Positions 13,647-44,931 of a DNA stretch of 64,000 bases are shown here, piece by piece (position 1 is the first letter of the stretch; each line of letters starts with the position of its first letter). The position numbers and the translations under genes are program-made. The notes below the pieces were generated by a model, which saw nothing but the letters and a program-made list of their open reading frames with translations, had not been told where the DNA came from and made no database searches. This DNA is from Escherichia coli (lineage in GTDB: Bacteria; Pseudomonadota; Gammaproteobacteria; Enterobacterales; Enterobacteriaceae). The stretch is from the NCBI RefSeq assembly GCF_030013595.1, contig NZ_CP122768.1; one strand, 5' to 3'.

Positions 13647-13675
13647 TTAATTCAAATAACAAAGAGGATTCTATT

Positions 13676-13921: not shown

Positions 13922-13971
13922 TGACTTACTAACCAATGCCCCTATCGTTATAATACACGGTAGGGGCGTTT

Positions 13972-16254: not shown

Positions 16255-16309
16255 GGTGATGCTGCCAACTTACTGATTTAGTGTATGATGGTGTTTTTGA
16301 GGTGCTCCA

Positions 16310-17007: not shown

Positions 17008-17022
17008 GTTGGAGTCATTACC

Positions 17023-18210: not shown

Positions 18211-18211
18211 C

Positions 18212-18240
18212 AAAAAAGCGCCCACTAGAGGCGCTTTAAT
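18212..18240. terminator. bidirectional rho-independent terminator between convergent helicase and lysis/structural operons
   Basis: stem AGCGCC/GGCGCT with 7-nt loop, A-run upstream and T-rich tract downstream. Confidence 0.45.
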
Positions 18241-18241
18241 T

Positions 18242-18595: not shown

Positions 18596-18604
18596 ATTAC
18601 CCCC

Positions 18605-18952
18605 TTAGATCATTTCGAAGATATAACCAATAAAGCGCATACCCTTGATATAATAAGGAGCAGTGCCTACACACACCGCGCGTGCATCGCCCAGACAGTT
18701 AAAGCTATAAGGATTAACTACATCGACTTCTTGCCCTACACGAAAACGATATTTAGGACGTTTAGCCAATGTAGCGACACAAAACACGGTCCCTTTTTCA
18801 TGATCGCGGATACATTCTTTATATTGTTTATGTTTAACTCTCTTCGCCTCAAAATCATGTGTCATGGATTCTGGGCTAATGCCATTGATAAAAATACCGG
18901 AAAGCTGGTCGACCGGATAAGTAGGAAATTCAGTAAAAATATTTTTAGCCAT
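18605..18952 (-). CDS. hypothetical protein (lysis cassette)
   Basis: 115 aa ORF tightly packed between endolysin and next gene. Confidence 0.45.
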   Translation of the reverse strand: MAKNIFTEFPTYPVDQLSGIFINGISPESMTHDFEAKRVKHKQYKECIRDHEKGTVFCVATLAKRPKYRFRVGQEVDVVNPYSFNCLGDARAVCVGTAPYYIKGMRFIGYIFEMI

Positions 18953-18990
18953 GTTATACCCCCATAAGATTCTATGAGGGTATTTATTGA

Positions 18991-19674
18991 TTAAACGTAT
19001 TTCATGCGCGATTTAATGTGCTTATTGATGTTTTCAAGCATCATTGCTTCGTTGCTTTCCCACGATCCTAGCGTCGAATAACGAGTAGAAATTTTATCCG
19101 ACTTAACGGCAACAATTCGCTTACTCTGTTTCTGTATGCGTTTCTCTAAGCGACGTTTTGCCACCGCCGATCCATTCTTAGCGCGTTTGGTTCGGGATTT
19201 CTTAGGCTTGTACTTCTTCATGATAAAAGTCCCTTCCTGGTTCTCTACCTTGATGAAGTTGCCATTTTCGATGTTACGCATCATCTTACCGCCTTTGATG
19301 GCCTTAATGTTCCCGTGGGCGTCTAAGACCTTACCGTTGGCAATTGGCACTAGCTTATTGATTTTGCCACCATCGAAATAGTGTTTCAGATAGTCATCCT
19401 GACTGCCGATCTTCTTGTCCTTATCCCTTGCGCCCTTGATGAAGATTTGGTGTCTCGTCCCTGAACGGTTCTTGTAGTTGGTATTACCTACAGCTTGTTG
19501 AGTCCAGCGAGTAGGTCTATCAACATTCTTGTTAATCTTCTTCTGGAGTGCTCTGGAAGCAAAGATCGCCCCTTCCCCTATCGCCTTTTCGAATGTATCG
19601 GTTGCTTTATCAGACCATTGGCGTAACGCTTTCTTAGTCCTTAGAGCGTTTCGTTTATTGGTACTGGTTGCCAT
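18991..19674 (-). CDS. hypothetical highly basic protein
   Basis: 227 aa, Lys/Arg-rich throughout. Confidence 0.45.
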   Translation of the reverse strand: MATSTNKRNALRTKKALRQWSDKATDTFEKAIGEGAIFASRALQKKINKNVDRPTRWTQQAVGNTNYKNRSGTRHQIFIKGARDKDKKIGSQDDYLKHYFDGGKINKLVPIANGKVLDAHGNIKAIKGGKMMRNIENGNFIKVENQEGTFIMKKYKPKKSRTKRAKNGSAVAKRRLEKRIQKQSKRIVAVKSDKISTRYSTLGSWESNEAMMLENINKHIKSRMKYV

Positions 19675-19675
19675 G

Positions 19676-19846
19676 TTAGCCCCCTAATAACGAAAAGACC
19701 CCCGCCAGTGTCCTTAGCAATTGTTCATCCACGGTCATAGCCGGGAGTTCAAGCCCAAAGGACGTTAGCAGAGGTCTAATTGCTACGTTATAAGTGAGGG
19801 CGACAATCAAGAGATAACCAAAATATTTCTTAAGTTTATTCTTCAT
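19676..19846 (-). CDS. small transmembrane protein (holin/spanin-like candidate)
   Basis: ORF 19676..19918 trimmed to MKNKLKK...; hydrophobic segment YFGYLLIVALTYNVAI; start codon choice uncertain. Confidence 0.35.
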   Translation of the reverse strand: MKNKLKKYFGYLLIVALTYNVAIRPLLTSFGLELPAMTVDEQLLRTLAGVFSLLGG

Positions 19847-28114: not shown

Positions 28115-28465
28115 TTACCCCGTTTGTGCGCTTCTGAGTTTCTCAAGCAAAGATGGATCGAACATGTTCAGCATTGCCGCTTTACGTTCTTCTTCTTTCT
28201 TGCGTGCAATTTCTTCCAGTTCTTCTTTAGTTTTAAAGAGTTTTTCTTCTCTAATTAATTGGAATTGGCTAGGCTTGAGTTTGCGTGCAGTTTCGCGAGT
28301 CATTCCTTGTGACGTCATATACATGGAATATTGCAACATCGCATTCTGCATATCATGAAACGCGGGGCTTTGTGGTTCTAAGTAGGTGTCGAAAATGTAT
28401 AATTTCCAAAACAGAGTGATTGGCATATTATCCATTTCATCTTTACTAAGCCCCGATCGCATCAT
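28115..28465 (-). CDS. tail assembly chaperone, T-like ORF (probably expressed as frameshift fusion)
   Basis: 116 aa frame immediately upstream of the tape measure gene; its frame is open back to the stop of the preceding ORF. Confidence 0.5.
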   Translation of the reverse strand: MMRSGLSKDEMDNMPITLFWKLYIFDTYLEPQSPAFHDMQNAMLQYSMYMTSQGMTRETARKLKPSQFQLIREEKLFKTKEELEEIARKKEEERKAAMLNMFDPSLLEKLRSAQTG

Positions 28466-28494
28466 TTGCCGGAAATAGAAATTCAGAAGCGGGT

Positions 28495-28803
28495 TTACTT
28501 TACCTCGTTTTCAATTACTGCCGGATCTTGCATCAATGACGCTTGAGCAACCAAACCGATTAATTCACTACGGACGTTAGTATACAGTGCCTTAACTTGT
28601 TCCATAGATTCAAATACTGGTTTACCGTCTTCATCTTCAATACAACGAAGAATAGAACGTTCATCACGGTCTTCTTTATCAGTATTGAAAACATGTTCGT
28701 TAAATTCTTTTACTGACATAGGGCGAGCATAGAACGTGAATCCGCCGATGGTCAGAGATTCACGTTTCGGAGAAAGAGCTTTCAGCATTTCATTAATATT
28801 CAT
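28495..28803 (-). CDS. tail assembly chaperone, G-like ORF
   Basis: 102 aa; ends ...EVK with codons GTA AAG TAA where the -1 frame is open. Confidence 0.5.
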   Translation of the reverse strand: MNINEMLKALSPKRESLTIGGFTFYARPMSVKEFNEHVFNTDKEDRDERSILRCIEDEDGKPVFESMEQVKALYTNVRSELIGLVAQASLMQDPAVIENEVK

Positions 28804-28845: not shown

Positions 28846-29352
28846 TTAAGAGATTTTCAAAGTCTGCTTAGTGCCAGTCTTCTTAATGTTGGTAAGGAAA
28901 GCAGCCGGAGGATTGCTTAACCAGTAATAATGAAAACCACTTTGCATACTGTTATAAGGAACAGTGACAGCAGCACCACCCAAATTAACGGTTATATTCC
29001 CCGCTCTACCGTTCTGGAGATATACAGCCATAGTAGGAGTACCACCATTGAATTGACCAACGATAACGCCAATCAGACGCCCTACGCCCACGTTTTCGGG
29101 GTTCTCCATAGATCCTTTACCGCGCATGTCAGTTACTGGATAGTTTGAAGCAGTTACACCCCAGTTATTACCCAATGAAGTAGACCACGCAGCAGTAGCT
29201 ACAACCGTATCCATACCACGACCACACATCGCGCTCATATTACCAGGTACACCAACTTTTAACGCTTGCATAGCCTCACGCATCCATCTCTTGCCAGTTA
29301 CAGAAACAGCCGATGATCCGACCCAGCCGGGCTTATTAACGACATTTGCCAT
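28846..29352 (-). CDS. hypothetical tail protein
   Basis: 168 aa, RBS GGAG before the ATG, tail module context. Confidence 0.45.
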   Translation of the reverse strand: MANVVNKPGWVGSSAVSVTGKRWMREAMQALKVGVPGNMSAMCGRGMDTVVATAAWSTSLGNNWGVTASNYPVTDMRGKGSMENPENVGVGRLIGVIVGQFNGGTPTMAVYLQNGRAGNITVNLGGAAVTVPYNSMQSGFHYYWLSNPPAAFLTNIKKTGTKQTLKIS

Positions 29353-29365
29353 TTTTATTACTCCA

Positions 29366-29397
29366 ATAAAAAAGCCCCACCATTAAGGCAGGGCTTA
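29366..29397 (-). terminator. rho-independent terminator (copy 1 of a triplicated element)
   Basis: minus strand AAGCCCTGCC-TTAAT-GGTGGGGCTT followed by TTTTTT. Confidence 0.5.
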
Positions 29398-29403: not shown

Positions 29404-29526
29404 ATCTTTAGCCTTGCGGCTTCGTTTAGCTGTGGCTTTCGCCGTAACAACCTCTAATTCTGGAATCACCACCGCTTCATGTTCCGGCTGTGGTTCCGGT
29501 TCTATTAAAGGAAGTTCTTCGTTAGT
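29404..29526 (-). other. in-frame post-TGA extension ORF (41 codons) downstream of putative major tail gene
   Basis: translation continues in frame after the TGA stop: TNEELPLIEPEPQPEHEAVVIPELEVVTAKATAKRSRKAKD, ending TAA just before the terminator. Confidence 0.3.
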
Positions 29527-30003
29527 TCATCCGGCAGTATTGAAGATTTCCTGTTTCAGCGGTTTGCCGTCCACTGCAAAGGTAAACTCTTTAGTTACCA
29601 CTTCTTCATCGCCACCGTTCATAGCAACTTTAGAAATAAAGCCGTTGAAAGCGGTGCGAATACCAGTCTGTTTTCCGGCGTCAACATAATACTCTATTTT
29701 GATTTGTACTCTTGTGCCGTCTTCGGCAGCTTTGATCAATTTTTCGTGGACACTATCCCCGGGGATGTAATTCACCGTAAGAGTCAGATCAGGAACATTC
29801 AGTTTACCTACTAGTTTACGGTTATACTGAGAAGAGAAGGATTTAACTTCTACAGTACCGCGCTCGATACCAGTTTCAGGAAAACCAGCACACTCTTTAA
29901 TTTCTTCATAGCCCTCATGGTTGAGAGTGGTGTTAGTGGTATCGGCGTGATAGAACAGACTTACCAGACCACCAGTAAAAATATCTTTAAATTGCTGAGA
30001 CAT
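29527..30003 (-). CDS. putative major tail (tube) protein
   Basis: 158 aa, followed by a strong terminator as expected for an abundant structural protein; assignment by size and context only. Confidence 0.45.
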   Translation of the reverse strand: MSQQFKDIFTGGLVSLFYHADTTNTTLNHEGYEEIKECAGFPETGIERGTVEVKSFSSQYNRKLVGKLNVPDLTLTVNYIPGDSVHEKLIKAAEDGTRVQIKIEYYVDAGKQTGIRTAFNGFISKVAMNGGDEEVVTKEFTFAVDGKPLKQEIFNTAG

Positions 30004-30058: not shown

Positions 30059-33000
30059 TTATTTAGTTGCTTTGAGTTCGGCAATTTCTTTCTGTAATGC
30101 TTCGATCTGGGCTTTATATTTGGCGTCCATTTCCTGAATAGCTTTAATAATCAAGGCATTAACAGCGGAGTTAGAAATAGTCTTAATTGCTTCTGGATTT
30201 TCTGGATCTTCGGTGGATTGAATACCTACTGCTTCCGGCAACACTTCTTCCAGATCCTGAGCAATAATACCTACTTCGCGTTTAATCACTGTGTCATCAG
30301 AAAGAGATTTAACTTTATCGTAGGTGTAGACTTTCAGGGAGTTTACTTTCTCTAATGCGCCGTCCTGTAATTCTTCCTTGTTGATTTTAAGGCGAGCATC
30401 AGAACGAATGTACACATCGTTAAAGCTACCGTTTCTGGATGCGCTTAAATCACCAGCCGCGTTAAAGTCAAACGTTGCATCGTGTACGTGCATACGCACC
30501 ATAGCATTTCCGATAGTACCGCTAGGAACATGTACACCCATTGCTGCGATATGATATTTACCTTGATGGGTTGCTTTCCATACGTTATGAGCGGAATCGG
30601 TTGATTGTTGACAGTCGACCTGAATACCAGAAGCACGATCACGCCAGCTAGTCCAACTACCACCAGCAACGCTACCACGAATAAGACCATTACCGCCACC
30701 GGATACAGTGCCCGTTTCAAGGTGAATCATCTTACCGCCGAATTTCCAGACTTCGGTTTGTTTCTCACCACGGAAGCGAATAACACCAGCGTCATCGCAA
30801 TACATCAAGCCCAACTCTAAACCGTTTGGATCTCTAAACCAGATGTGCTTATTGCCAGCGCGTTTAAACGTAATATCAGCACCAGTTGTTGTGATATTGC
30901 TAGCAACGTTTAGACTACCCGCCATAGAGAACAGAATAGGTCCAGTGCCACCCTGAGTACGTTCAGTATACCAGTGATAACTTGTAGCATCCTTACATTC
31001 AAAAACCTGTTTGCGTTGCTCGTTACCCCATGTATGGAGACTAAATTGCGAAGAAGAACCACGGTTAGCATCAAATGCAATTTCACCAGATTCTACACGT
31101 ACAAAGCCTCTAAAACGTGTTGTTATGTTACCAGTACCCATAGCACGTTCAGTGATAAAATGTGCGCCCTGACTGTCTTCAATCTGTAGGATGTTATCGC
31201 GACCGTTATTGCTATCGCCCCAATGGTTAAACCGGAAGTAATCGCGGGAATTTAATCGCCCAGCGTCGAAAGTCAAATGCCCTTTCTTAATGTAAACGTC
31301 ATTACTAAAGCGAGCGGCTTTGCTTGCACGTTCTAAGACTAATGCACCTTCGTTACCATCACCACCCAAAGTAACATTACCGCTACCAAGATGGTAAATG
31401 AACGGACGATAGCCGTTCCAACTACCAAGTTTATCATTTTCGGCAGTAGACAGAAGATATACGTTTTGACCATCATTACGCCAGAATGCACCATAATTAC
31501 CGTAGATCATGCGGTAAGCGTCGCTATTCATTGAGATGAATTGAGCGTTAGTATAAACTCGTTTTGTGTTACCGGTTGCAAGTTCGATCTGTCCGTCTAT
31601 GTGGTGACGAATAGAAGTACCACCTACATCACTATACCATTCAAAAACGTTAGTATCAGCATTACCATAACCGATCCACCCTTGACGGGTAATAGATCCA
31701 GTCCGATTATCTTGAAACGTAATATGGTTGGATTGACCAGCAGGACGCCGCAAGGTAATAACATTACTACCGCCACCCAACATCATTCGACCAGAAAGAA
31801 TATTACCTTTATGAGTCCCAGCAATAGAGCTACTAGATTCAACGGTTAGAATCTCCTGAGCATCTGTACTACCCGTGGCGAGTCGATAAGTAGAACCCTG
31901 AACCGTCTCATGCCAGATCATTTCATTATAGTTACTGCGGAATTTACGAATATATTTCCGACCAGTACCCCTATCATTACTCAAGTGAACAATATCATAA
32001 CTATTTTGTGTGTTATCGTCAAAACTCAACACACCTCGTTTGTTTTCGGTGTTGAAAAGAGTAATGATGCGCCCATCAATAACACCAACAGAAGGTTTAA
32101 TTAACGTGGCTTCCGGTGTATCGTGAACAGTCAGATTAACATAAACACTTTTACCAAATTCAACAATAACGTTATCAGTGTAACGCTGATATTTCACATA
32201 AATGTCATAGTTATCACCGGATGTATTGACGGCAAATACATCAAAATCTTTGACGGTATTTCGACGATATGCAACTACGTTAAGTCCTTTAGGTCTATCG
32301 TTACCACTACGGAGAAGAATTTCTACTACATCAACTTGGTCATATGCCGTAACGTTGTAACCATTACCACCATGAATACGGAAAAACACACTACGCCCGT
32401 TTTGTGGAATTGTTGCGGTTGCCAATTTGAAATATGCAGATACGTTTTCGCTAGAATTGGGAACAGACATAACGACGTTTTTAACAAACATCTTATCAAC
32501 TTCGGCTTTGGTGTATGCACCAATCTCGCCAGGAGTCGGCTTATCACCTTCGTGATACATCTTATAGCTAAAGTTCTTCTGTCCTTCTCTATCAAAACCA
32601 TAGGTTTCAACACGAGATCCACCAGACGCATAACGGAAAGTAAATCCGCGACCGTGAGCTTTACCGGCAGAGTGAGGAACGTTAAGAGTTAGATCCATGA
32701 GTCCATCTTGACCATTGGTACGGAAAGCACCAAAGTAGTTAAGATCTCTCGCTGTCTGGTCTTCCAAATAGTTAGCTGTTTTGGTTAACAGATACCCGCC
32801 ATGCTTAGTGTTGGTATTCTTCTTGATGTAAAGAGCATCGTTACTACCTTCAATACCATCAATTCGACGGTTAGCGGCTGCGATCGCTGAATCAGTATCA
32901 GTTTTGTTTTTGTCAACCTTTGCGTTAATAGCGGTATGGTTGCTATTCACCGTCCCTGTAAGGTTACTGATTTTAGTATCAACATCTTTCTTGTTGTCGG

Positions 33001-33520
33001 AAACGACCTTTTCAATCGCTGTTTTGTTAGCTGCAACCGTGCTAGTTAAGCTAGAAATTTTGTTATCTGCATCGGTTTTATTTGCAGTAACAGTTTTAGT
33101 CAAGTTGCTAACGTTGGTGTTAGTGGTATTAACTTTGTTGTTAATCGCGGTGTTATTGTCATTAACCGTCGTGGTTAAAGCTGCGATTTTATTGTCCGCA
33201 TCTCGTTTATTATTTGCTACAGTAGTTTCTATAGCTGATTTGTTAGATGCAACTGTCCCCGTAAGGTTATTGATCTTAGTATCAGCATCGGTTTTATTTG
33301 CCGCGATAGTCGCATCAGTAGTTTTCTTGTTATTGTCTACTTTTGTGTTTAAAGCATTATGACTTTCAGGAGAAACACTTACTTGAACTACTGCGTTATT
33401 TTTATCTTTGGTATAAATTACATGGTCTGCCATCTGAATAGCGATTTCACCGACCTGTAATTGTTCCGGCGTTGGCTTTTTACCAGCCGTCTGTGTGCGT
33501 TTAAATTGGATCGACTGCAT
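30059..33520 (-). CDS. side tail fiber with tandem repeats and C-terminal intramolecular chaperone (S74-like) domain
   Basis: 1153 aa; conserved fiber N-terminus (KPTPEQLQVGEIAI...YTKD), about five 28-29 aa repeats (ANKTDADTKINNLTGTV...), C-terminal DVYIRSDARLK ... GIIAQDLEEVLPEAV chaperone signature. Confidence 0.75.
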   Translation of the reverse strand: MQSIQFKRTQTAGKKPTPEQLQVGEIAIQMADHVIYTKDKNNAVVQVSVSPESHNALNTKVDNNKKTTDATIAANKTDADTKINNLTGTVASNKSAIETTVANNKRDADNKIAALTTTVNDNNTAINNKVNTTNTNVSNLTKTVTANKTDADNKISSLTSTVAANKTAIEKVVSDNKKDVDTKISNLTGTVNSNHTAINAKVDKNKTDTDSAIAAANRRIDGIEGSNDALYIKKNTNTKHGGYLLTKTANYLEDQTARDLNYFGAFRTNGQDGLMDLTLNVPHSAGKAHGRGFTFRYASGGSRVETYGFDREGQKNFSYKMYHEGDKPTPGEIGAYTKAEVDKMFVKNVVMSVPNSSENVSAYFKLATATIPQNGRSVFFRIHGGNGYNVTAYDQVDVVEILLRSGNDRPKGLNVVAYRRNTVKDFDVFAVNTSGDNYDIYVKYQRYTDNVIVEFGKSVYVNLTVHDTPEATLIKPSVGVIDGRIITLFNTENKRGVLSFDDNTQNSYDIVHLSNDRGTGRKYIRKFRSNYNEMIWHETVQGSTYRLATGSTDAQEILTVESSSSIAGTHKGNILSGRMMLGGGSNVITLRRPAGQSNHITFQDNRTGSITRQGWIGYGNADTNVFEWYSDVGGTSIRHHIDGQIELATGNTKRVYTNAQFISMNSDAYRMIYGNYGAFWRNDGQNVYLLSTAENDKLGSWNGYRPFIYHLGSGNVTLGGDGNEGALVLERASKAARFSNDVYIKKGHLTFDAGRLNSRDYFRFNHWGDSNNGRDNILQIEDSQGAHFITERAMGTGNITTRFRGFVRVESGEIAFDANRGSSSQFSLHTWGNEQRKQVFECKDATSYHWYTERTQGGTGPILFSMAGSLNVASNITTTGADITFKRAGNKHIWFRDPNGLELGLMYCDDAGVIRFRGEKQTEVWKFGGKMIHLETGTVSGGGNGLIRGSVAGGSWTSWRDRASGIQVDCQQSTDSAHNVWKATHQGKYHIAAMGVHVPSGTIGNAMVRMHVHDATFDFNAAGDLSASRNGSFNDVYIRSDARLKINKEELQDGALEKVNSLKVYTYDKVKSLSDDTVIKREVGIIAQDLEEVLPEAVGIQSTEDPENPEAIKTISNSAVNALIIKAIQEMDAKYKAQIEALQKEIAELKATK

Positions 33521-33597: not shown

Positions 33598-34431
33598 TTA
33601 ATACTCACCGAAATCGATCCGGTCCGTCTTAGCCACTGCGCCAATTTCGGCTGGCGTAGGCTTCTCGTTTGTTGTATAGACTTTAATCCATTCCGATTTT
33701 CCGTTGTCCTGAATATTTCGTACCCGCAAACGTGGAGCACCGGAAGTATTACACGTTAATTGCCATGCGCCATGCTCATTAGCTTGAAGATGAATTAACG
33801 ATGTATCAGCACCATAAGGGTTAGTGCTAGCCGTTCCTTTGTAGGTTACAAAGCGGTTTCCTGTCAGAGATTCACTATCAATAGGTCCGGTGAATGGGCT
33901 AACGCCTGAGCCTACGCCAAAATCCCCTTGTCGGATGAGTTTTCCCTCGGTCGCTATACCCCTTGCTAGAATCCCGCCATCTGGTTCAAGTTTAAATTCC
34001 AGTGTTACAGCTTTGTTATCACTACCACGGGTTTTATGTGATGTGACGTAAGCATCGAATATACAAAAGTACCCTGTGTTAGCAGCACTATAGCCAGAGT
34101 TCACAACATAGAACATACGGAAGCGTAAAGGTGTTTTATCCTCTACCGCTTTCATCAACATTGCTTGATGTTCGTCATCCAGAACACGGTTTAACGTGAG
34201 TGTCGTCGGTTCCAGTCTACGATAACCAGCAAGTTTCCCCGTAGCGTCCTGATCGTACTCTTCCAGAGTTTCAATCTCTGTGGATTCTGTTAGCGTAGGG
34301 AATGCTGCGACGTTCTCAATAGAACTAAAGCTAGGATCGAAAAAGTCGACCTGATTGTCTAGCTGGTTAGAGATCGACACTTCAACATGCGATCCCGTAA
34401 AAATATCTAAGTTATCTTGTGTAATATTCAT
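33598..34431 (-). CDS. hypothetical structural protein
   Basis: 277 aa; C-terminal EKPTPAEIGAV motif echoes the fiber N-terminus. Confidence 0.4.
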   Translation of the reverse strand: MNITQDNLDIFTGSHVEVSISNQLDNQVDFFDPSFSSIENVAAFPTLTESTEIETLEEYDQDATGKLAGYRRLEPTTLTLNRVLDDEHQAMLMKAVEDKTPLRFRMFYVVNSGYSAANTGYFCIFDAYVTSHKTRGSDNKAVTLEFKLEPDGGILARGIATEGKLIRQGDFGVGSGVSPFTGPIDSESLTGNRFVTYKGTASTNPYGADTSLIHLQANEHGAWQLTCNTSGAPRLRVRNIQDNGKSEWIKVYTTNEKPTPAEIGAVAKTDRIDFGEY

Positions 34432-34440: not shown

Positions 34441-34911
34441 TTAAAAACGCGCTAGATAAGAAAATTTAAGGCTAAGTGTCCCAACGATACCCCCATCACT
34501 AGAATCATCGTCATAATCGGTATTAGAAGCTACTGGAGTGATATCTGAAATTGAGAAGCCCAAATCTTTAAAACGTGGGTTATCCGGCTGAATCTGGATT
34601 ATCTGGCAAATACCCTCATGAATTTTGGTTTCATGAATCTGAGAATACAATTGCATTTCGATAACGCATTCAGCTTGCATTGCATTACCGCCACGGACCC
34701 TATTGTAAGTCTCATTCATTCCGGTGATCCAACAAACCACGTCATCACTAAAGCCTTGCTGAGTTTGTTCTACGTTTAAAGCCAGACCTAAATCTTGTTC
34801 GATAATATCCTGCAAGGCGCGTTTGATTTTCAGTCTAGGCATATTATTAACGGTAGCGAGCATGTGTACCCCCTGCCAGAGTGATAAAGCAATCAGTTGT
34901 ATTGTCACCAT
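34441..34911 (-). CDS. head-tail joining protein candidate
   Basis: 156 aa ORF in head-to-tail junction region; true start may be the internal Met. Confidence 0.35.
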   Translation of the reverse strand: MVTIQLIALSLWQGVHMLATVNNMPRLKIKRALQDIIEQDLGLALNVEQTQQGFSDDVVCWITGMNETYNRVRGGNAMQAECVIEMQLYSQIHETKIHEGICQIIQIQPDNPRFKDLGFSISDITPVASNTDYDDDSSDGGIVGTLSLKFSYLARF

Positions 34912-35137: not shown

Positions 35138-35167
35138 AGTTACCCCCTTTATGGAGTATTTACATAC

Positions 35168-35196
35168 AAAAAAGCCCCACCGTTAGGCAGGGCTAA
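35168..35196 (-). terminator. rho-independent terminator (copy 2)
   Basis: minus strand AGCCCTGCC-TAAC-GGTGGGGCT followed by TTTTTT. Confidence 0.5.
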
Positions 35197-35202
35197 TTAT
35201 TA

Positions 35203-35286
35203 TTTTGCTTTCGGTGGACGTCCCACCTTTTTAGCTGTGGCTTTCGCCGTAACTACCGGAATTTCTTCCGGCAATTCTTCGTTATT
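35203..35286 (-). other. in-frame post-TGA extension ORF (28 codons) downstream of capsid gene
   Basis: NNEELPEEIPVVTAKATAKKVGRPPKAK after the TGA; shares NEELP and VVTAKATAK with the extension at 29404..29526. Confidence 0.3.
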
Positions 35287-37293
35287 TCACTCTTCGCCAA
35301 TTTTCAGAACTTTCAGAGCTTCCGGCTGTGCTACAACGTAGTCCAAATCTACAAAGATACGAGGCACTACCGCACCACGGTCACGGTATGTAGTTAGATC
35401 CATATCCAGTTCCAGACCGCCCCACTCACCGATGGTAATACCGGAGAAGTCACCCAGAACGATGTGGTCTGCCGGAATAACGCCAGAAGTAACTACTTCG
35501 TAACCAGCCAGTTTGCCGTTTTCGATGATATAACCGGAAACGCCGTTATCTTTCAGGGTAGATTCCAGTTCGGCAGCAGTTGCACCGCTCATTGCAAACT
35601 TGATCGCCTGAGCAGGAACGCCAGCGTCGGTCAGTGCTGCAATTTCTTTCAGGAAGTCTTTATAAGAGAAAGCAGCTTTCTTGGTAACGCGGCTAGCGTC
35701 TACCAGTTGCTTAACCAGACCAGCCGGACCACGAGCATTTTCTTTATCAGACAGAATCAGTTGTTCCAGTTTGATACGAACAGCTTTGTTAATGTGATCA
35801 GTGATCAGGGTAGCGATGCCCGGAACGGTTTTCAGCGACTGACGGCTGATCGGGTTGCCACCAGCAAAAGTTTTCGGAGACAGTTTCACGTTCGCAAATT
35901 CAGCTTTGCTTTCCGGTGCAGCACCGTTTTCATCAACGAAGCCGAAAGCGTCAACGCTGGAAGCGGTCATTTTTGGAATAGCGGTCGGGGAGTTCAAGCC
36001 ACTGTAAACAGTCACACCCAGACGACCCAGACACGAAGCAGGAAGCAGCATTTCGATGTAGGATTCAGTCATCAGTTTTTCGTCAGTGATAGCGGTCAGG
36101 TCGGCTTTGGTGTTACCAGCAGAAGCAGCACGCAGAGCAGCAGCCGGAACGAATACAGAGCCACCACGAGCAGCACGACCACGCTGCATAGTTGCAGTAG
36201 CAGCCATTGCGGAATATTCAGCTTCGTTAGCGCCGAGCACGTCGCCATCTACCAGGGAGCGGATTACGTTATTAAGATCGAAAGTTTTTTCCATGATTTG
36301 TTCCTTATTAATTTGTTCGTTATTACGTTGAGCATTGGTAATGTTATTTAGTGCCTTAGTGCGGAATGCTTCCGGCGTCATGTCTTTAATTGCCAATGCG
36401 CGTGCTAATTCAGAGTCATCAATATTTAGTTCGCGTGCAATTTCGCGAATTTCTAATTCGTCTTCTTCGGAACGTTCAGCCACTTCCTCGGTTTTTTCTT
36501 CTTCAACCGGAGCGGCTTCACGTTCTTCTTTTACTTCTTCTGTTTCCCGAACAGTTGAACTATCATCATCAACACTTTCAGGATGTTCAGCGTCTTTTCC
36601 GTCTTCGAGATTTTCATCTTCTTTATTCTCTTCAACTTGGCGCTCTTGAGTTTCTTCAACTTCCGGTTCTTTATTTTCTTCTACCGGAGTTTCTTCAACC
36701 TGAGCGGCTTCTTGTTCTTCTTTGATTTCTTCGATTTGTTCTTTAGTCATATCGCGTTTAGCCCCCAAATTAACTGTGATAGTATTTAGAGAGCGATTTA
36801 AACCGACCGTATCGTCTGCGGGCACCGACACCCATGAAATCTCGTGAGGAATCCATTTAGAAACAATGAGTTGCGATTTAGCGTAGTCGATGTGATATTC
36901 TTTAATGTCATAACCGACAGAAATTTTTTCCATCGTACCTTCAATGACTTTATTGCGAATATCATTAGCCAAAGTGCCATGCTTAGAGAATCTAACGGTC
37001 GCACGGCCTACGTTATCCGCATCGATTCGAGCGTTACAAACGACACCAATGTGATTATCGAAATTGTGATTGAACAGCAACGGAGCGTTATTATTCAGAC
37101 GAGACAGATCAACCGCTTCCGGTGTATGTACCAGAATTTCATCTAATACCACCATTTCTTGATTTTGCTCATCCCAAAATTGGCGCTGATAAGGCTGTGT
37201 ACTTGAGAAAGCAATTTCAAATTCGTATTGATCGTTATGCCCTTCATTAATAACTCCACCGTAACCGTTAAGATCGCGGCGAAATTTAAGCAT
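35287..37293 (-). CDS. prohead protease - scaffold - major capsid protein fusion
   Basis: 668 aa; N-terminal protease-like domain, central Glu-rich acidic linker (scaffold/delta-like), C-terminal HK97-like capsid region; directly downstream of portal. Confidence 0.65.
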   Translation of the reverse strand: MLKFRRDLNGYGGVINEGHNDQYEFEIAFSSTQPYQRQFWDEQNQEMVVLDEILVHTPEAVDLSRLNNNAPLLFNHNFDNHIGVVCNARIDADNVGRATVRFSKHGTLANDIRNKVIEGTMEKISVGYDIKEYHIDYAKSQLIVSKWIPHEISWVSVPADDTVGLNRSLNTITVNLGAKRDMTKEQIEEIKEEQEAAQVEETPVEENKEPEVEETQERQVEENKEDENLEDGKDAEHPESVDDDSSTVRETEEVKEEREAAPVEEEKTEEVAERSEEDELEIREIARELNIDDSELARALAIKDMTPEAFRTKALNNITNAQRNNEQINKEQIMEKTFDLNNVIRSLVDGDVLGANEAEYSAMAATATMQRGRAARGGSVFVPAAALRAASAGNTKADLTAITDEKLMTESYIEMLLPASCLGRLGVTVYSGLNSPTAIPKMTASSVDAFGFVDENGAAPESKAEFANVKLSPKTFAGGNPISRQSLKTVPGIATLITDHINKAVRIKLEQLILSDKENARGPAGLVKQLVDASRVTKKAAFSYKDFLKEIAALTDAGVPAQAIKFAMSGATAAELESTLKDNGVSGYIIENGKLAGYEVVTSGVIPADHIVLGDFSGITIGEWGGLELDMDLTTYRDRGAVVPRIFVDLDYVVAQPEALKVLKIGEE

Positions 37294-37338: not shown

Positions 37339-38850
37339 TTAGGGATCGGCTGGGGAATTTTTTTCTTCACCCTCGCCATCAACGATAATATTTAGTGCGC
37401 TCTTTTCGGCTTGAATCTCTGAGAATACTTTTTCAGGATCATCACCACGTTCAAGAATAACGGCAGTACGTGATTTAAGTCCTTTATCAATTAAAGCAAT
37501 CTCGGCGCTTACGTCTTTAAATGGATCGACGGATTCAAAACGAGGACGAATAATAGTAGTGTTGTCGATAATATGCGGAATTGCAGTAATACGAATCGGA
37601 ACAATACCACGCGCGGAATAATGGCGTAGATATGCTTCGAAAATTGGCAATACCACTGTTTCAATCAATTTGTTTTGCAGTGCTTTAACTCGTGTGCGCT
37701 GGGTTAATTCACCGAAACGTGCGGCTGAGTAGTTGATCTGGCTAGTATCACCAGTCAAGCCCTGTTTAAACACGCCTAAGCCCATTGATACGCTAGTAAA
37801 CATCGCATCATTGAAGCTGTTAAAGTCATCACCGCTTTGCGTCGCCTGGATGCTCTTGATCGTTGCCCCTTCCGGCAATTCCTGAATAGTACCCGGTGCA
37901 AAATCCTGTACTACTTCCGGCGCTTGATATTGTTCATCCTCTTCACCAGTATCAAAATCGTCACCAGAATCTTTCGGACGTTCGATAAAGCCCATAGAAC
38001 TAGCCGCAATACGTTTCTGGACGATCGCAGTTTCGCGGAATGCGTCTTGATGTGCGATATCCTTAATCACTGGCAGGAAATCAGTCACACCACGCAGGGA
38101 TTCAGACGCAAGTGGTTGATAATAATGGAATACTTGCGAAGCATCGACGCGATAGTTATCACCTGTGTAAGTCTGAGTCAGTAGGTTGATTTTACGAAAC
38201 CAATATGCAACAGGGCGCATTGTTTCTACGTCATACTCGATCCCCTGATAGATAGCACGTTCTTTGCTTATTTCACGGTTTAGCGACCAGTCGCACTTAT
38301 CAGCAGACAGGATGGAAACATTTAACTCATTGTTTTCTTTGGTTAAAACGATGAAGCACTCACCACCCATAACGCGCTCACGTTCAGCCATTACCAGCAG
38401 TTCACGGAAGTTAAAGCGACCGTTACGAGAGAAGCGTTTAGCGTTCTGCGCCCACTTCCAGAAAGCATTCTCGATCTGCTTATTCAGTGCGCTATCAAGT
38501 TTGCCATTTGATTTAACGATTGACGGCTTCGGATCTAGGCCAGTACCTACCACCATATCGGTGATGTATTGCGTGTAGCGACTGCCAACGGAAGTGTTTA
38601 AGGCCAGAGTACGACCCTGATCATAAAGGCGCTCACCGTTCGATTTGAGAGCCTTATTGAAGGTTCCTGTAATGGTGTCTTGTTGAAGTGATCCATCAAT
38701 ACGATCACCAACCAGTCCTAAACTACGAGTCGCCAGAGATTTCTGGTATCTTTCTATAGATTTGTCGATGAAAATTTTTGGTTGTTGCTGGCGGTGATTA
38801 GTTTTAACTGGAGTTTCTACCGCCTTTTTGCGTCGAAAAAGATTAAACAT
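37339..38850 (-). CDS. portal protein
   Basis: 503 aa, size and position between terminase and capsid. Confidence 0.65.
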   Translation of the reverse strand: MFNLFRRKKAVETPVKTNHRQQQPKIFIDKSIERYQKSLATRSLGLVGDRIDGSLQQDTITGTFNKALKSNGERLYDQGRTLALNTSVGSRYTQYITDMVVGTGLDPKPSIVKSNGKLDSALNKQIENAFWKWAQNAKRFSRNGRFNFRELLVMAERERVMGGECFIVLTKENNELNVSILSADKCDWSLNREISKERAIYQGIEYDVETMRPVAYWFRKINLLTQTYTGDNYRVDASQVFHYYQPLASESLRGVTDFLPVIKDIAHQDAFRETAIVQKRIAASSMGFIERPKDSGDDFDTGEEDEQYQAPEVVQDFAPGTIQELPEGATIKSIQATQSGDDFNSFNDAMFTSVSMGLGVFKQGLTGDTSQINYSAARFGELTQRTRVKALQNKLIETVVLPIFEAYLRHYSARGIVPIRITAIPHIIDNTTIIRPRFESVDPFKDVSAEIALIDKGLKSRTAVILERGDDPEKVFSEIQAEKSALNIIVDGEGEEKNSPADP

Positions 38851-39427: not shown

Positions 39428-41332
39428 TTAGAACGATGTTACCCAGCTACGGCCTCTATTTGGGCGTCTGACGATGTTTTGACGTTGTGGTCGTGTGATT
39501 GGCTTAGTTTCTTCGATTTGCTCGTCAGATTGCGATTTAGGAGCTTCTACAGGTTCTTCTGGTTCACGGTTCAAACTATCTTTGATGGCTTCGAGTTTTT
39601 CCCATGACATTTTATTGAGTACATGACGAGAAGCAGCATAGGAATAAGCCAGGCAGTCCAACGCTTCGTTTCGTGTTTGTCCAACTTTTACCCAACGTGT
39701 GGTATTACCCTGCCGTTTCAACTGTTCAGAAAGCAATTGCTCGCAATAGTCATCAGGAACGTCACCAATCTGGAAGACAGTGTGAGGATCGCCATCTCTC
39801 AAGTTCCGGTTAATCATTTCACGGATCATCGTTTTAAGGTTGTTTACGCCCAGAATTTTAAGGGTAAAACCACCCGTTCTTGTGTCTTTTACCGGAAGGA
39901 TTGGTGCATCAACATTGCTTGCGCCTTTAATGGCGGTTAGATTTTGCCACCGACTACAGAATCGATAGATCACGTTTGTAGCTCGTCCGTTCGATGAGTC
40001 CACGAAAGCAGATAACATCGGGATTCGTTCACCGGATCGGGTATAGAATTTAGCTTTCAGGAAGTTGTAAAGCTGGTTATATGCTGGTGATTCGTGGCGT
40101 TCGCAGTTCACATCATAGAATGATCGGTGATCAACTACGCATAGCCCTTTACGAGAAATACCCAGCAAGGTAGATTCCAGACGGTCTTTTTGCTGGTCAA
40201 CTCCACCTACCAGAGCCAGTACATCATCAGGAATATTGTCTAGGCTAATATCAGTTTTCAGCGTTTCTAATTCGTCGGCTGTGCGGTCTTCGTTAAGATC
40301 ATCGAAGGTTTCACCGAGGACTGTATTGTAGAACGTTGCCAGGGACATATTCGCGTAGCTATCAGCAAAGTCCACCACACACGCACGGATAGAACTAAAC
40401 GGAGACATAAGGCGGTTAGCATGAAAACCGATTACTTCCGCGTTTGGTTCGGTGGCGACCCATTCTCCCTGTCCAACAGCACGTAGGCGATCACCCTCGG
40501 TCCAATCGGTTTCACATTCAGGGCAACGGTAAACGGCTGTATCTGGGTTGGGTAATGATTTACCGTTAATCGTATGCCAATCGAAATGTACGTTACTCCA
40601 TTCCATTACGTGCTTGTGTCCGCAATGCTGGCAAACGACATGATATTTTCTCTTATCCGAGAGTTCCCATTGTTGGTTAATCGCCCCATCACGAGCGGTT
40701 GGAGTGGAAGCAATTACGATCCTTGCATCTTCCCCGAAAGTGGTTGCGCGTTGTTCCGCTAGTTGGATCGGGTTCCCTTCGTCTGACTCATCAGCCGCAT
40801 CAACTTCATCAAGAATAATCAAAGGGAGTGTTTTACCGCGAAGATGTGACGGACTATTCAACGACATGAAATACATAAACGATCCGTTACGAAGCTGAAT
40901 AATCGATGAGTTGTTAACGGCATTGCGATCTGATTTGTCGGTGATCATCGCCTTTAATTCTGGTGTTGCCTCTAATACTGGCTTCACCTTACCAGCGATC
41001 CAAGAATTTAGTTCTCTAACGTTACTTTGCAACACCCCAATATTAGTAGGGTTACTCGCGATCCGATGGAAGATAATTCCGTTAAGAATCATGGTCTTAC
41101 CCAACTGTGCCGAACATTTAAACACAATTTTTCTACGGTCTTCGGTGATCGCGTCCATCATTCCACGTTGGAAGGGATGCAATTTAATTAGCGATCCGGC
41201 TTTAACACCATCGGTTGCAACTACATTAGCCTCTACCCATTCGCTAGGTTTCATCGTTTTAGGTGGGCGAATTGCCGCAGAGATATTTTTAAGAATCTTT
41301 TTTAATTTTGCCTTGTTCGAAATCAGTTTCAT
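39428..41332 (-). CDS. terminase large subunit (GpA-like)
   Basis: 634 aa; Walker A-like FKCSAQLGKTMILNG, acidic DE-rich nuclease region at C-terminus. Confidence 0.8.
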   Translation of the reverse strand: MKLISNKAKLKKILKNISAAIRPPKTMKPSEWVEANVVATDGVKAGSLIKLHPFQRGMMDAITEDRRKIVFKCSAQLGKTMILNGIIFHRIASNPTNIGVLQSNVRELNSWIAGKVKPVLEATPELKAMITDKSDRNAVNNSSIIQLRNGSFMYFMSLNSPSHLRGKTLPLIILDEVDAADESDEGNPIQLAEQRATTFGEDARIVIASTPTARDGAINQQWELSDKRKYHVVCQHCGHKHVMEWSNVHFDWHTINGKSLPNPDTAVYRCPECETDWTEGDRLRAVGQGEWVATEPNAEVIGFHANRLMSPFSSIRACVVDFADSYANMSLATFYNTVLGETFDDLNEDRTADELETLKTDISLDNIPDDVLALVGGVDQQKDRLESTLLGISRKGLCVVDHRSFYDVNCERHESPAYNQLYNFLKAKFYTRSGERIPMLSAFVDSSNGRATNVIYRFCSRWQNLTAIKGASNVDAPILPVKDTRTGGFTLKILGVNNLKTMIREMINRNLRDGDPHTVFQIGDVPDDYCEQLLSEQLKRQGNTTRWVKVGQTRNEALDCLAYSYAASRHVLNKMSWEKLEAIKDSLNREPEEPVEAPKSQSDEQIEETKPITRPQRQNIVRRPNRGRSWVTSF

Positions 41333-41844: not shown

Positions 41845-41872
41845 AAAAAGCCCCACCATTACGGCAGGGCTT
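41845..41872 (-). terminator. rho-independent terminator (copy 3)
   Basis: same AGCCCTGCC...GGTGGGGCT-TTTT element as at 29366 and 35168. Confidence 0.45.
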
Positions 41873-41876
41873 CTAA

Positions 41877-42428
41877 TCAGATTCCGAAGATGTCACATAG
41901 GTCGGCTGTGTGGCGTTCTTGTTTTGAATAGTAAATCCGTTCAGCTTCATATAACGTGATAGAATCATCATTAACGACGGTTTCAAACTCCCCTTCTATT
42001 ACCCTTTCTGTGTGCGCTTTACTGCGTAATTCGGCCTCTTCCATGCGATATAAGCCAATACAGATACTACCATATACACCATATTTTTTCTCGTCGAGAT
42101 GGCGACGACCTTTGCGTTGTTCGAACGGAAGATCGTAAGCGGTTATCTTTTTGCGGCGAACTCGATCATATCCACTCTCTTTGGCATCAATCATCATACT
42201 AATCAACATCCCACATTTAACAAGGGATTCAAGGCACTGACGAATAGAATTAGTTCTTGATTGTTTTAATTCTGGGTTAGGATCGTAATATGGATTATCT
42301 ATCCATGATTCATGAATAAGGAAATGTACGTCATCAGCCGTTAAAGGCCAACCACCAACACTTTCAACATCGGTCTTAGTACAATCAAACAGATCCAGAA
42401 TGAATTTCTTTTTGTGCGTCATTTTCAT
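41877..42428 (-). CDS. hypothetical protein
   Basis: 183 aa ORF. Confidence 0.45.
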   Translation of the reverse strand: MKMTHKKKFILDLFDCTKTDVESVGGWPLTADDVHFLIHESWIDNPYYDPNPELKQSRTNSIRQCLESLVKCGMLISMMIDAKESGYDRVRRKKITAYDLPFEQRKGRRHLDEKKYGVYGSICIGLYRMEEAELRSKAHTERVIEGEFETVVNDDSITLYEAERIYYSKQERHTADLCDIFGI

Positions 42429-44743: not shown

Positions 44744-44931
44744 CGGGGGCAAATTTCAGGGGCAAAAATTAGATTTTCAGGGGCAAAAATAGTGGGTTTC
44801 AGGGGCAAAAATGAGGGGCAAAATCACTGTTTCCCAGAATTTCAGGGGCAAAAATAGTGGGTTTCAGGGGCAAAAATGGGATGTGGAATCTAGGGGATTT
44901 TGGTTCAGGGGCAAAATTCAGGGGCAATTTT
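44744..44931. repeat. iteron-like direct-repeat array, about 9 copies of TTCAGGGGCAAAAAT at mostly 21-22 bp spacing
   Basis: copies at 44757, 44777, 44799, 44842, 44864, 44905, 44918 plus degenerate copies at 44745 and 44813; two 22-bp units AGTGGGTTTCAGGGGCAAAAAT are identical. Confidence 0.65.

Follow-up and report, generated by a model that had tools for sequence, protein, structure and literature searches.

Readthrough of the stop codon of a structural gene in a bacterial virus is, to our knowledge, a textbook case only for the RNA phage Qβ, and the C-terminal tails that are added to phage capsid or tail proteins by recoding are otherwise known to us only as products of frameshifting. The coat gene of Qβ ends in UGA followed by A. 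In T7 the stretch that encodes the 10B extension lies between the main stop codon and the Tφ terminator after the capsid gene, and the extension is displayed at the surface of the capsid. In the Listeria phages PSA, A118 and A500, in which two structural proteins are extended, the two extensions are as far as we know not copies of one cassette. The UGA of the Qβ coat gene is read by near-cognate tRNA-Trp at a few percent, and the virion incorporates a few copies of the longer form of the coat protein (PMC5289835). The same source, citing Engelberg-Kulka (1981), states that in E. coli tRNA-Trp misreads UGA especially readily when position +4 is an A (PMC5289835). Recoding at the end of the capsid gene, 10A/10B, of T7 (and of T3) produces a minor form of the capsid protein that is longer by about 50 amino acids at its C-terminus, and in the three Listeria phages both the capsid (Cps) and the tail shaft (Tsh) genes yield C-terminally longer recoded products (PMC5009743).

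In an E. coli prophage located in the window, i.e. the whole stretch of 64,000 nucleotides of DNA that was analysed, a C-terminally longer product is encoded at the 3' ends of both the capsid and the tail tube genes (Table 1). This anatomy, the product itself being predicted, fits the class of the frameshift-derived long forms. The capsid fusion protein belongs to PHROG 617 'major head protein' (E 7.6e-90) and also matches PHROG 4523 'major head and protease protein'. RefSeq lets this gene stop at its TGA and leaves the extension unannotated. From the sequence alone it had been noticed that the capsid gene ends in TGA-A and continues in frame for 28 codons before a TAA, and this was confirmed, peptide included. 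Among the relatives the extension of every capsid copy is closed by TAATAA or TGATAA, and the terminator of the capsid cassette is nearly invariant (nucleotide diversity 0.014). The tube domain was modelled by AlphaFold with a pLDDT above 90 and has the tube domain of lambda gpV as its best match in the PDB; residues 159-200, which form the tube extension, are coil in the same model. Large C-terminal additions follow this tube domain in 104 of 150 representative homologues. No Pfam domain was found in the extension, which is 27-45 amino acids long and of low complexity.

Table 1. Position of the capsid and tail tube genes, the two cassettes and the associated elements in the window.
Feature	Position	Strand	Basis or remark
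Protease-scaffold-major capsid fusion gene, 668 codons	37293..35290	-	ORF list and translation
Putative leaky stop signal TGA-A after the capsid gene	TGA 35289-35287, +4 A 35286	-	Sequence and translation
Capsid extension NNEELPEEIPVVTAKATAKKVGRPPKAK, 28 in-frame codons, acidic linker and basic tip	35286..35203	-	Translation
Tandem strong stops TAA TAA closing the capsid extension	TAA 35202-35200 and TAA 35199-35197	-	2 nt 5' of the terminator stem
Intrinsic terminator of the capsid cassette, AGCCCUGCC-UAAC-GGUGGGGCU and U6, G+C-rich hairpin	35194..35167	-	
RNA hairpin AAUUGCCGGAA-GAAA-UUCCGGUAGUU	35276..35251	-	Starts 10 nt after the UGA; fold z -5.9 (extension without terminator)
Small hairpin GGUGG-GACGU-CCACC	35227..35213	-	Within the codons for VGRPP
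Exact 24-nt core GTTACGGCGAAAGCCACAGCTAAA	35253-35230 and 29448-29425	-	Codes for VTAKATAK and includes the mini-hairpin GGC-GAAA-GCC
Tail tube gene, 158 codons, lambda gpV-like tube domain	30003..29530	-	PHROG 158; Pfam Phage_TTP_12/11
Sister cassette: TGA-A, 41 codons TNEELPLIEPEPQPEHEAVVIPELEVVTAKATAKRSRKAKD, TAA	29529..29401	-	TGA 29529-29527, extension 29526..29404, TAA 29403-29401
Terminator of the sister cassette	29396..29366	-	Stem 29396..29372, T-run to about 29366
Third copy of the same terminator, no extension	41877-41845	-	Adjoins the TGA of an unrelated ORF of 183 aa (42428..41877)

The capsid and tube cassettes have the first ~17 nt after the TGA in common (A.TAACGAAGAA.T.CC) and share the 24-nt core, which gives two matches even with three mismatches allowed and none in 100 shuffles. 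The C-termini of the proteins 5' of the two stops are unrelated (..VLKIGEE in the capsid and ..EIFNTAG in the tube protein), so the similarity of the copies starts at the stop codon, exactly as the sequence-only reading had held. An open run after the stop is by itself not improbable, the probability by chance alone being about 0.26 for 28 codons and 0.14 for 41 codons. The significance of the cassette lies in its homology and in the comparative data, not in the length of the open run.

Stop, extension and terminator had been taken together as one portable module. For the stop and the extension this is supported. A second capsid allele with 36-37% protein identity carries the same cassette, and some capsid copies have a tube-type 3' end, which shows that segments are exchanged between capsid and tube copies. 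Capsid allele 1, capsid allele 2 and the tube gene thus provide three different ends in front of the cassette, each stopping at the cassette's own TGA. Comparison of these sequences supports the view that the cassette is portable between genes in frame. The terminator, however, is separable. Its near-identity in the two copies, also part of that reading, was borne out (the stems are identical and the loops 1 nt apart), but a third copy lacks any extension and in the relative L126 the extension is paired with a different terminator. This indicates that the terminator is not an obligatory part of the module but a separate, reusable element. The third terminator, which adjoins an ordinary stop, also shows that coding ends in this phage lie within a few nucleotides of their terminators: the distance from stop to terminator stem is 2-5 nt for the extensions and likewise for the ordinary ORF at 42428..41877.

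For the comparison 113 copies from prophages of E. coli were used, 53 of them distinct. They all belong to a single E. coli prophage lineage, so the 53 variants cannot be counted as independent. The first in-frame stop 5' of the core was in 113/113 copies a TGA-A ending a capsid or tail-tube ORF, and TGA-A was also present in four RefSeq genomes picked among the more divergent matches, one of which has a diverged core (TEKSTKK). The leak-prone UGA with A at +4 is thus conserved among the relatives, as readthrough would demand, and no lineage was found with a sense codon in place of the stop. On this strand 25 of the 28 prophage genes end in TAA; TGA occurs at three gene ends, and TGA-A at those of the capsid and tube genes only. 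Tube alleles of ~81-99% identity have the extension in 24/24 loci, with 36-41 codons; in the allele of ~59% identity it is absent from 12/12 loci, all of which end in TAA-T.

This E. coli prophage is common and occurs in about 1% of complete genomes. A wide occurrence of the 24-nt motif in non-coding contexts or in other frames, which had been named as evidence against the proposal, was not seen: the motif is confined to the E. coli prophage family and to frame 0. All of its 19 exact matches in IMG/VR are on contigs of this family, and the three matches in 100,044 species-representative genomes are chance matches inside ordinary genes of unrelated taxa. A protein-pattern scan of species-representative genomes, based on the capsid alignment, gave no matches. 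The peptide VTAKATAK returned in a degenerate search of IMG/VR 16 unrelated matches, consistent with chance bar one, and among 5.8 billion protein clusters no readthrough product or long extension peptide was present, only truncated capsid fragments. No close relatives were found in 50,697 GenBank phage records. The nearest phage, Escherichia phage DCP80 (capsid 43% and tube 45% identity), uses ordinary TAA stops and has no extension.

Frame 0 stays open through the extension of every copy, and eleven lengths occur (27, 28, 33, 36 and 39-45 codons). When the copies were aligned without regard to codons, 8/8 gap blocks within the extension were multiples of 3; in the next 55 nt after it 4/4 were of 1-2 nt. 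Frame 0 is therefore kept open among the relatives despite indels, as expected for readthrough. Each variant has no stop in frame 0 versus one to seven in the other frames, and the chance of finding no frame-0 stop after about 100 random substitutions is about 0.012. Codon usage in frame 0 of the extension, expressed as log2 odds per codon, is 0.358 compared with 0.357 for the real genes of the phage and with -0.40 and -0.27 for the other frames. Frame 0 scores best in 43/43 variants, and for the present capsid extension it reaches 0.40 versus -0.78 and -0.08. The substitutions in the extension fall on the three codon positions as 14, 8, 18 and 17, 22, 21, without third-position bias; in the upstream coding ends the counts are 14, 12, 37 and 13, 10, 38. 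Their even distribution implies that the amino-acid sequence of the extension is barely constrained. An acidic-then-basic composition is kept across variants that differ in sequence, with 62% E/P/K/A/T and no W, C, Y or M. At 0.10-0.17 the nucleotide diversity of the extension is no higher than in the coding gene, and the 24-nt core shows almost no synonymous variation and is nucleotide-identical in both copies.

Programmed UGA readthrough, which would give minor, C-terminally extended isoforms of the capsid and tube proteins and place an acidic linker with a basic tip at the surface of the virion, is in our view the probable explanation. The evidence that favours readthrough at the TGA, as had been proposed from the sequence, is comparative, i.e. 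the frame-preserving indels, the absence of stops, the codon usage and the choice of stop codon. Evidence on the other side consists of the even spread of substitutions over codon positions, the changes that compensate for one another in RNA hairpins, the near lack of synonymous variation in the core, the absence of the long peptide from the protein clusters and of any lineage with a sense codon at the stop, and the origin of all copies in one lineage.

The same segment also has properties of a structured RNA. Compared with shuffles the extension folds with z-scores of -4.8 and -3.0 when the terminator is included and of -4.4, -5.9 and -2.7 without it, and the covariation score of 0.076 versus 0.033 was reached by 0/500 shuffles. 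In each of the three sequence types the predicted structure sets in 10 nt 3' of the UGA, and covariation at that place is confined to the short variant (4 sequences). The hairpin at 35276..35251 shows one compensatory and two pair-preserving changes among the four distinct short variants, the mini-hairpin of the core a compensatory C-G to A-U change in the relative L142, and the hairpin at 35227..35213 a compensatory U-A to C-G change in the variants with GGCGG...CCGCC. Because several changes compensate for one another in hairpins, and some of these are non-synonymous, selection may act on the RNA. The hairpins differ between the short capsid, long capsid and tube variants. A consensus fold computed for the tube-type RNA gave no support for the long-range stem, several pairs being broken. 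The distance from the core to the terminator is fairly constant and that from the core to the TGA variable. No Rfam family was found in the whole window, nor was a complementary sRNA target of at least 10 nt within these 64 kb.

The extension could accordingly be regarded as a structured 3' untranslated RNA, either an end that stabilises the mRNA or an Hfq-type sRNA released from the two most abundant late mRNAs, with the core as seed or protein-binding site. We consider this rather unlikely. It would account for the folding far better than shuffles, the compensatory changes in the three small hairpins, the identity of the core at the nucleotide level, its steadier distance to the terminator than to the TGA and the missing third-position bias. 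An intrinsic terminator with a U-tail, preceded by a conserved single-stranded segment, is present as well, and the A-rich stretches together with this U-tail resemble an Hfq-binding architecture. An untranslated RNA leaves unexplained, however, why all eight indels are multiples of 3, why only frame 0 is free of stops and has gene-like codon usage in every one of the 43 variants, why three unrelated upstream ends all stop at the cassette's TGA, and why the leaky TGA-A is invariable in a phage that otherwise uses TAA. The lack of an Rfam match and of a target in the window, the variability of the hairpins between variants and the unsupported long-range fold of the tube type also argue against it.

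It might also be that the passage of the ribosome matters and not the peptide. A ribosome that has read through would mask the 5' arm of the terminator, so that readthrough would be linked to terminator override or to protection of the 3' end and would adjust the expression of downstream genes. An ORF that is open and in frame with no constraint on its amino acids would be understandable on this basis, as would the constant and very short spacing between the extension stop and the terminator and the position of internal terminators exactly after the two genes needed in highest copy number. Only the leading ribosome affects termination, so that readthrough of a few percent would shift terminator efficiency by a few percent at most; the effect on the terminator would be small. 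Besides, the conserved acidic-then-basic composition would not be needed, the same terminator lies directly after an ordinary stop at 41877, and the extension of one relative has a different terminator. This explanation seems improbable.

That the extension is a functionless remnant, a longer ancestral C-terminus cut by a nonsense mutation whose leftover was copied with the terminator, would fit its coding-like codon usage, the neutrality of substitutions as to codon position, the frequent C-terminal additions of tube-protein relatives and the short natural E/P-rich tail of a DCP80-like homologue, but it is very improbable, as decay predicts frameshifts and stops instead of the in-frame indels and zero stops seen next to indels of 1-2 nt just downstream, and as TGA-A is kept in all copies of both genes, the extension was transferred in frame to a capsid allele of 37% identity and its diversity does not exceed that of the coding gene.

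Other forms of recoding were ruled out. Selenocysteine insertion, which requires a conserved SECIS hairpin at a set distance from the UGA, is contradicted by the sequence after the UGA and its hairpins, which differ completely among the short capsid, long capsid and tube variants and have no Rfam match. Reassignment of TGA to Trp or Gly does not agree with ORFs that are intact under the standard code, with TGA at three gene ends only and with E. coli as the host. A suppressor tRNA (UCA anticodon) borne by the phage was not found, the sole tRNA call being a doubtful tRNA-Gln(ttg). Frameshifting is incompatible with an extension in frame 0 and with the one to seven stops in the other frames, and no conserved slippery site exists; the last sense codon before the TGA varies (GAG, GAA, GAC, GGA, TCT, GGT and GCT). 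Internal initiation is dismissed in view of the absence of an in-frame ATG or GTG at the start of the extension; those overlapping the stop (A-ATG-A.., GTG-AAA-TAA) open very short ORFs only.

According to the readthrough explanation, in both the capsid and the tube gene most ribosomes would end translation at the UGA. As UGA-A is the context most readily misread by the tRNA-Trp of E. coli, a small fraction of the ribosomes, which we infer to be ~1% (range 0.1-10%), would insert an amino acid at the UGA, most likely Trp. RF2 of natural E. coli strains is more efficient than that of K-12, and readthrough would therefore stay low. The ribosomes that read through would add 28 codons to the capsid or 41 codons to the tube protein and halt at the tight TAA(TAA) just before the terminator. 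With Trp at the UGA the junctions would be VLKIGEE-W-NNEELPEEIPVVTAK in the capsid and ..QEIFNTAG-W-TNEELPLIEPEPQPEHEAVVIPELEVVTAK in the tube protein. The product would be a minor isoform with a disordered C-terminal tail, in which an acidic linker rich in Glu and Pro is followed by a tip rich in Lys and Arg (..VTAKATAKK/R..). This tail would exit the tube domain where lambda gpV bears its outward-facing Ig-like domain, and on the capsid it would be attached to the C-terminus, the end used by T7 to display 10B. Given these positions on the capsid and the tube, each head and each phage tail would bear a few such extensions pointing outward from the particle. The hairpins may protect the 3' region, which would be mostly free of ribosomes, and/or stimulate readthrough, the latter being suggested by the start of predicted structure 10 nt after the UGA. 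The tail could provide weak adhesion to anionic polymers of the cell surface or of mucosa, or a docking site for another part of the virion.

Going further, the cassette can tentatively be pictured as a self-contained recoding unit that is portable by recombination and could be joined to the 3' end of any structural gene. This would be the first programmed readthrough of a stop codon known to us in structural genes of a tailed dsDNA phage. The cassette would allow a sparse display, at a fixed ratio, of one cationic peptide on head and tail as a handle for adhesion or docking (e.g. to anionic surface polymers or to the phage's own gp37-like fibre), and one RNA segment would be selected for frame, fold and leakiness together.

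In a full-text search of the literature, the coverage of which is incomplete so that absence is unproven, no report was found of a tailed phage whose capsid or tail-tube gene undergoes stop-codon readthrough. If our interpretation is correct, readthrough of the Qβ type would extend to tailed dsDNA phages, and readthrough signals would be able to travel between genes as a unit. It would also mean that current annotation wholly misses these virion components and that a natural low-copy display site is available on head and tail. The cassette is directly testable in culturable lysogens such as E. coli 14EC007 or O55:H7 DEC5A.

Of the known systems, the A1 protein of Qβ resembles the prophage cassette in the type of recoding proposed and in the context of the stop. 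However, Qβ is a ssRNA phage in which a single gene receives a folded domain of ~196 amino acids that is needed for infectivity, whereas the prophage belongs to a tailed dsDNA phage, two of its genes are involved, the tail of 27-45 amino acids is predicted to be disordered and readthrough is proposed from the sequence. With T7 10B the cassette shares a candidate recoded C-terminal extension that lies between the stop of the capsid gene and a terminator. T7 makes use of a -1 ribosomal frameshift; in the prophage the extension follows the stop in frame 0 and a conserved slippery sequence is missing. The Listeria phages PSA, A118 and A500 are similar in that both the major capsid and the major tail gene are affected at their 3' ends, but there the host is Gram-positive and the products arise by a +1 or -1 frameshift, as opposed to the putative readthrough into homologous extensions that exchange segments. 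SPP1 gp17.1/gp17.1* and lambda gpV likewise carry C-terminal additions on a lambda-type tube domain, which in their case face outward, and in the structural model the tube extension begins where the Ig-like domain of gpV begins. These additions are folded FN3 or Ig-like domains, in contrast to the short coil without predicted fold of the prophage; gp17.1* is made by a +1 frameshift and the domain of gpV is constitutive. CpxQ and SroC, Hfq-dependent sRNAs of enterobacteria that derive from 3'UTRs, have in common with the cassette a conserved segment and small hairpins immediately 5' of the intrinsic terminator in which an abundant mRNA ends. Unlike the prophage element they have no reason to keep a reading frame, and the element is without an Rfam match or a target in the window. 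Proposed readthrough, together with one cassette common to two genes, sets the prophage apart from T7 10B, PSA Cps/Tsh and Qβ A1, which it otherwise resembles.

The late genes of the prophage are on the minus strand of the window. According to the ORF reading, the sequence-only reading was right, coordinates included, that the capsid gene ends in TGA-A and runs on in frame for 28 codons to TAA and a terminator. Its claim that the likeness begins at the stop codon was also borne out: immediately downstream of the TGA the 3' regions of the capsid and tail-tube genes agree over ~17 nt, and they share an exact 24-mer, the core (two matches; none expected in shuffles), and the terminator, while the C-termini encoded upstream are unrelated. 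The TAA of the tube extension is 5 nt ahead of a terminator with the same stems. This design recurs at a third place in the prophage (41845-41877, -), directly 3' of an unrelated ORF of 183 aa that ends in TGA-T and has no extension. The extension stops are 2-5 nt from the terminator stem, and ordinary ORF 42428..41877 stops similarly close to the third copy; the terminator would thus mark the end of the extension, rather than the TGA, as the end of coding.

Late genes and extension features of the prophage
Feature	Position	Strand	Remark
Terminase	41332..39428	-	
Portal	38850..37339	-	
Protease-scaffold-capsid fusion	37293..35290	-	668 aa
Capsid stop TGA	35289-35287	-	next base A
Capsid extension	after 35289-35287 TGA	-	28 open frame-0 codons (NNEELPEEIPVVTAKATAKKVGRPPKAK)
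Capsid extension end	35202-35197	-	TAA TAA
Capsid-side terminator	35194-35167	-	
Three small/medium ORFs	between capsid fusion and gp37-like fibre in gene order	-	
gp37-like fibre	33520..30059	-	
Tail tube protein	30003..29530	-	158 aa
Tube stop TGA-A	29529-29526	-	
Tube extension	after 29529-29526 TGA-A, up to TAA	-	41 codons
gp38-like adhesin, chaperones, tape measure, tip proteins	after tail tube gene in late order	-	

A 277-aa ORF (33598-34431, -) directly upstream of the T4 gp37-like fibre gene (30059-33520, -) has a second tail-tube-like domain at its N-terminus (PHROG 158, E 8e-10). Because distant tube-domain homologues are mostly fused to long fibres, its product may form a tube-like ring to which the fibre is anchored. 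The gp38-like adhesin gene (28846-29352, -) is downstream of the tube gene, and at 28115-28803 (-) a 102-aa tail assembly chaperone ORF precedes one of 116 aa that shares its frame with the tape-measure gene; a G/GT-type frameshift would be expected here. A 91-nt tRNA-Gln(ttg) called by ARAGORN at 34586-34676 (+) lies inside ORF 34441..34911 in antisense orientation; the call is probably spurious, and the tRNA is no UGA suppressor. Four closely spaced TTTCAGGGGCAAAAAT(A/G) copies in an A+T-rich stretch separating divergent genes (44749-44878) resemble the iterons or operators of a prophage replication/immunity region. Outside the late operon, two adjacent small genes have in common a 63-nt start region (13289-13351 and 13660-13722, +; 75% identity). 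It spans the ribosome-binding site and an N-terminus resembling a signal peptide (MKKTIYAIIVSVCVGG / MKKIIAGIVLALGLVG), and the pair has the appearance of paralogues encoding small lipoproteins or secreted proteins.

Of the complete E. coli genomes (5,426), 53-54 carry the region as a chromosomal prophage, and further loci of the family were drawn from IMG/VR and metagenomes. RefSeq annotation of the capsid and tube genes stops at the TGA, and the extensions carry none. A search for the motif elsewhere, as the sequence-only reading had proposed, restricted the 24-mer to this E. coli prophage family: 100,044 species-representative genomes held three matches only, all chance ones within ordinary genes. 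The extension peptide was absent from database proteins; therefore, no lineage has fused the extension to its gene. Among GenBank phages no close relative was found, the best being DCP80 (43% capsid identity), which has ordinary stops. The record of this Escherichia phage (PQ671644.1, 141 kb) is classified as T4-like Straboviridae; its positions 1-19765 carry a lambda-like terminase, portal, fused protease-capsid and lambda-type tube module homologous to the prophage, and it may be chimeric or misclassified.

From the core as anchor, its reading frame was traced back towards the gene in 113 copies (53 distinct). Every copy had TGA followed by A as the first stop met, always at the end of a capsid or tube ORF. 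Four RefSeq genomes picked from more divergent matches had the same TGA-A at the capsid or tube end, one of them with a diverged core (..VVTEKSTKKVGRPPKAK) and 27 codons. The cassette, i.e. TGA-A plus extension, was found after three upstream ends, those of the tube gene, of capsid allele 1 and of another capsid allele with only 36-37% protein identity to it; in each the gene's own stop is the cassette's TGA. The last codon before the TGA varies (GAG, GAA, GAC, GGA, TCT, GGT, GCT), and therefore there is no slippery site. A second tube allele (~59% identity) is without the extension and ends in TAA-T in 12 of 12 loci. TAA ends 25 of the 28 genes of the window prophage, in which TGA-A occurs only at the capsid and tube stops. 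Exchange between capsid and tube copies can account for the near-identity of their cores; capsid copies of three relatives (L102, L120, L134) have a 3' end of the tube type (AKRGRKPKE). In another relative (L053 3001-4999; IMGVR_UViG_2877285697_000006) the capsid frame closes after 393 codons, by an internal frameshift or sequencing error, and TGA-A, extension and terminator are intact downstream. The Qβ coat/A1 stop is likewise UGA with +4 A. This is the context most readily misread by E. coli tRNA-Trp, according to the statement in PMC5289835 that cites Engelberg-Kulka 1981.

Eleven extension lengths occur among relatives. In a nucleotide alignment made codon-blind, all eight gap blocks within the extension were multiples of 3 (3, 3, 3, 6, 6, 15, 27, 48 nt); the four in the 55 nt after it were of 1, 1, 1 and 2 nt. 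No extension variant had a frame-0 stop; in the other frames each variant had 1-7. If substitutions were random, 4.4% of them would create a stop, and the probability that ~100 changes yield none is then ~0.012. With the late genes of the phage itself as reference, codon usage gave 0.358 log2 odds per codon in frame 0 (0.357 for real 40-codon windows) and -0.40 and -0.27 in the off-frames (-0.34 and -0.30 in real genes), frame 0 scoring best in 43 of 43 variants. Together with the choice of stop, these signals would be hard to explain without ribosomes reading the extension in frame 0. They suggest a portable UGA-readthrough cassette that yields minor extended capsid and tube isoforms, which we consider rather probable. 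For this module, already put forward by the sequence-only reading, the stops, frame, codon usage and three upstream contexts provide comparative support; readthrough itself is unproven.

Substitutions in the extension were not concentrated at third positions (14, 8, 18 by codon position in the tube type; 17, 22, 21 in the capsid type), and over the final 30 codons of the genes upstream they numbered 14, 12, 37 and 13, 10, 38. Nucleotide diversity of the extension (0.10-0.17) was similar to that across the whole gene, and the terminator with the spacer after it was nearly invariant (0.014). The gene-like diversity without a third-position excess implies that the peptide sequence is under apparently loose constraint. 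Its composition was kept in seven sequence-different versions: an acidic Glu/Pro-rich part, then ..(V/K)TAKAT(A/V)K.., then a basic tip with 5-6 Lys/Arg per 8-10 residues. Without the terminator, the RNA fold of the three sequence types had z = -4.4, -5.9 and -2.7, and in all three the predicted structure starts 10 nt after the UGA. Compensatory double changes were present in three small hairpins: the short variant's 11-bp hairpin and GGUGG...CCACC (U-A to C-G in both) and the core mini-hairpin GGC-GAAA-GCC (C-G to A-U). Some of these changes are non-synonymous. In a small sample of 10 distinct, related sequences, 99.4% of the cells of the named structure were paired, and the covariation score was 0.076 vs 0.033 in shuffles (reached by 0 of 500). 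This covariation shows apparent selection of the extension RNA for its fold as well.

A 3' element acting as RNA only would fit this fold and would leave the frame-0 signals hard to explain; we consider it unlikely. A regulatory role of ribosome transit would share those signals and would not need the retained peptide composition; it is quite improbable. That the extension is a decaying remnant, as its loose constraint might suggest, is less credible still, all variants being open in frame 0. Rare translation of the extension by readthrough would reconcile the frame signals with selection on the RNA fold. The 3' segment would be mostly ribosome-free and need its own nuclease protection through structure, and structure just beyond the terminating ribosome may additionally promote readthrough. 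RNA constraint on all codon positions, with a peptide needing only a flexible, acidic-then-basic character, would erase the third-position signature. The capsid of phage R4C, homologous to that of the prophage (30% identity), has 415 subunits (PMC10276861); ~1% readthrough of such a number would give each head a handful of tails, and each phage tail a few.

The tube protein has a lambda-type tube domain (Pfam Phage_TTP_12/11). Its AlphaFold model (pLDDT >90 across most of the tube domain, residues 11-150) matched best in the PDB the lambda gpV tube domain (2.2-2.6 Å, ~146 columns), residues 159-200 being coil. On this model the extension is predicted to start at the same point as the outward-facing Ig-like domain of gpV. 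An N-terminal tube domain followed by large additions was found in 104 of 150 representative homologues; one of these, inspected individually, proved to be a fibre that carries a Peptidase_S74 chaperone. The C-terminus of T7 10B is surface-displayed, and by analogy the capsid tail would be placed likewise. In a Bacillus TP21-L-like phage (L104 1789-2631, -; IMGVR_UViG_2630968595_000002), an unrelated major capsid protein of 280 aa ends in ..AHAKAEVTAKATAKK and its stop, the same peptide as the extension core, and Bacillus phage TP21-L gp7 (L135 301-1137) ends in ..AHAGKVEKATAKN and its stop. The AHAKAEVTAKATAKK ending may be chance in low-complexity sequence; alternatively, it may be a sign of short basic KATAK-type tails recurring on capsid C-termini.

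A literature search of incomplete coverage returned no report of readthrough in tailed-phage capsid or tube genes. Qβ A1 is of the same recoding type as proposed for the cassette. The proposed outcome, a C-terminally longer form, is like that of T7/T3 10B, Lactobacillus phage A2 and SPP1 gp17.1*. Nearest in outcome are the Listeria phages PSA, A118 and A500, in which long forms of both the capsid and the tail genes are made by frameshifting (PMC5009743). Since the cassette failed the defining frameshift test and has no Ig-like domain, it is not a member of this frameshift group, yet it would work alike.
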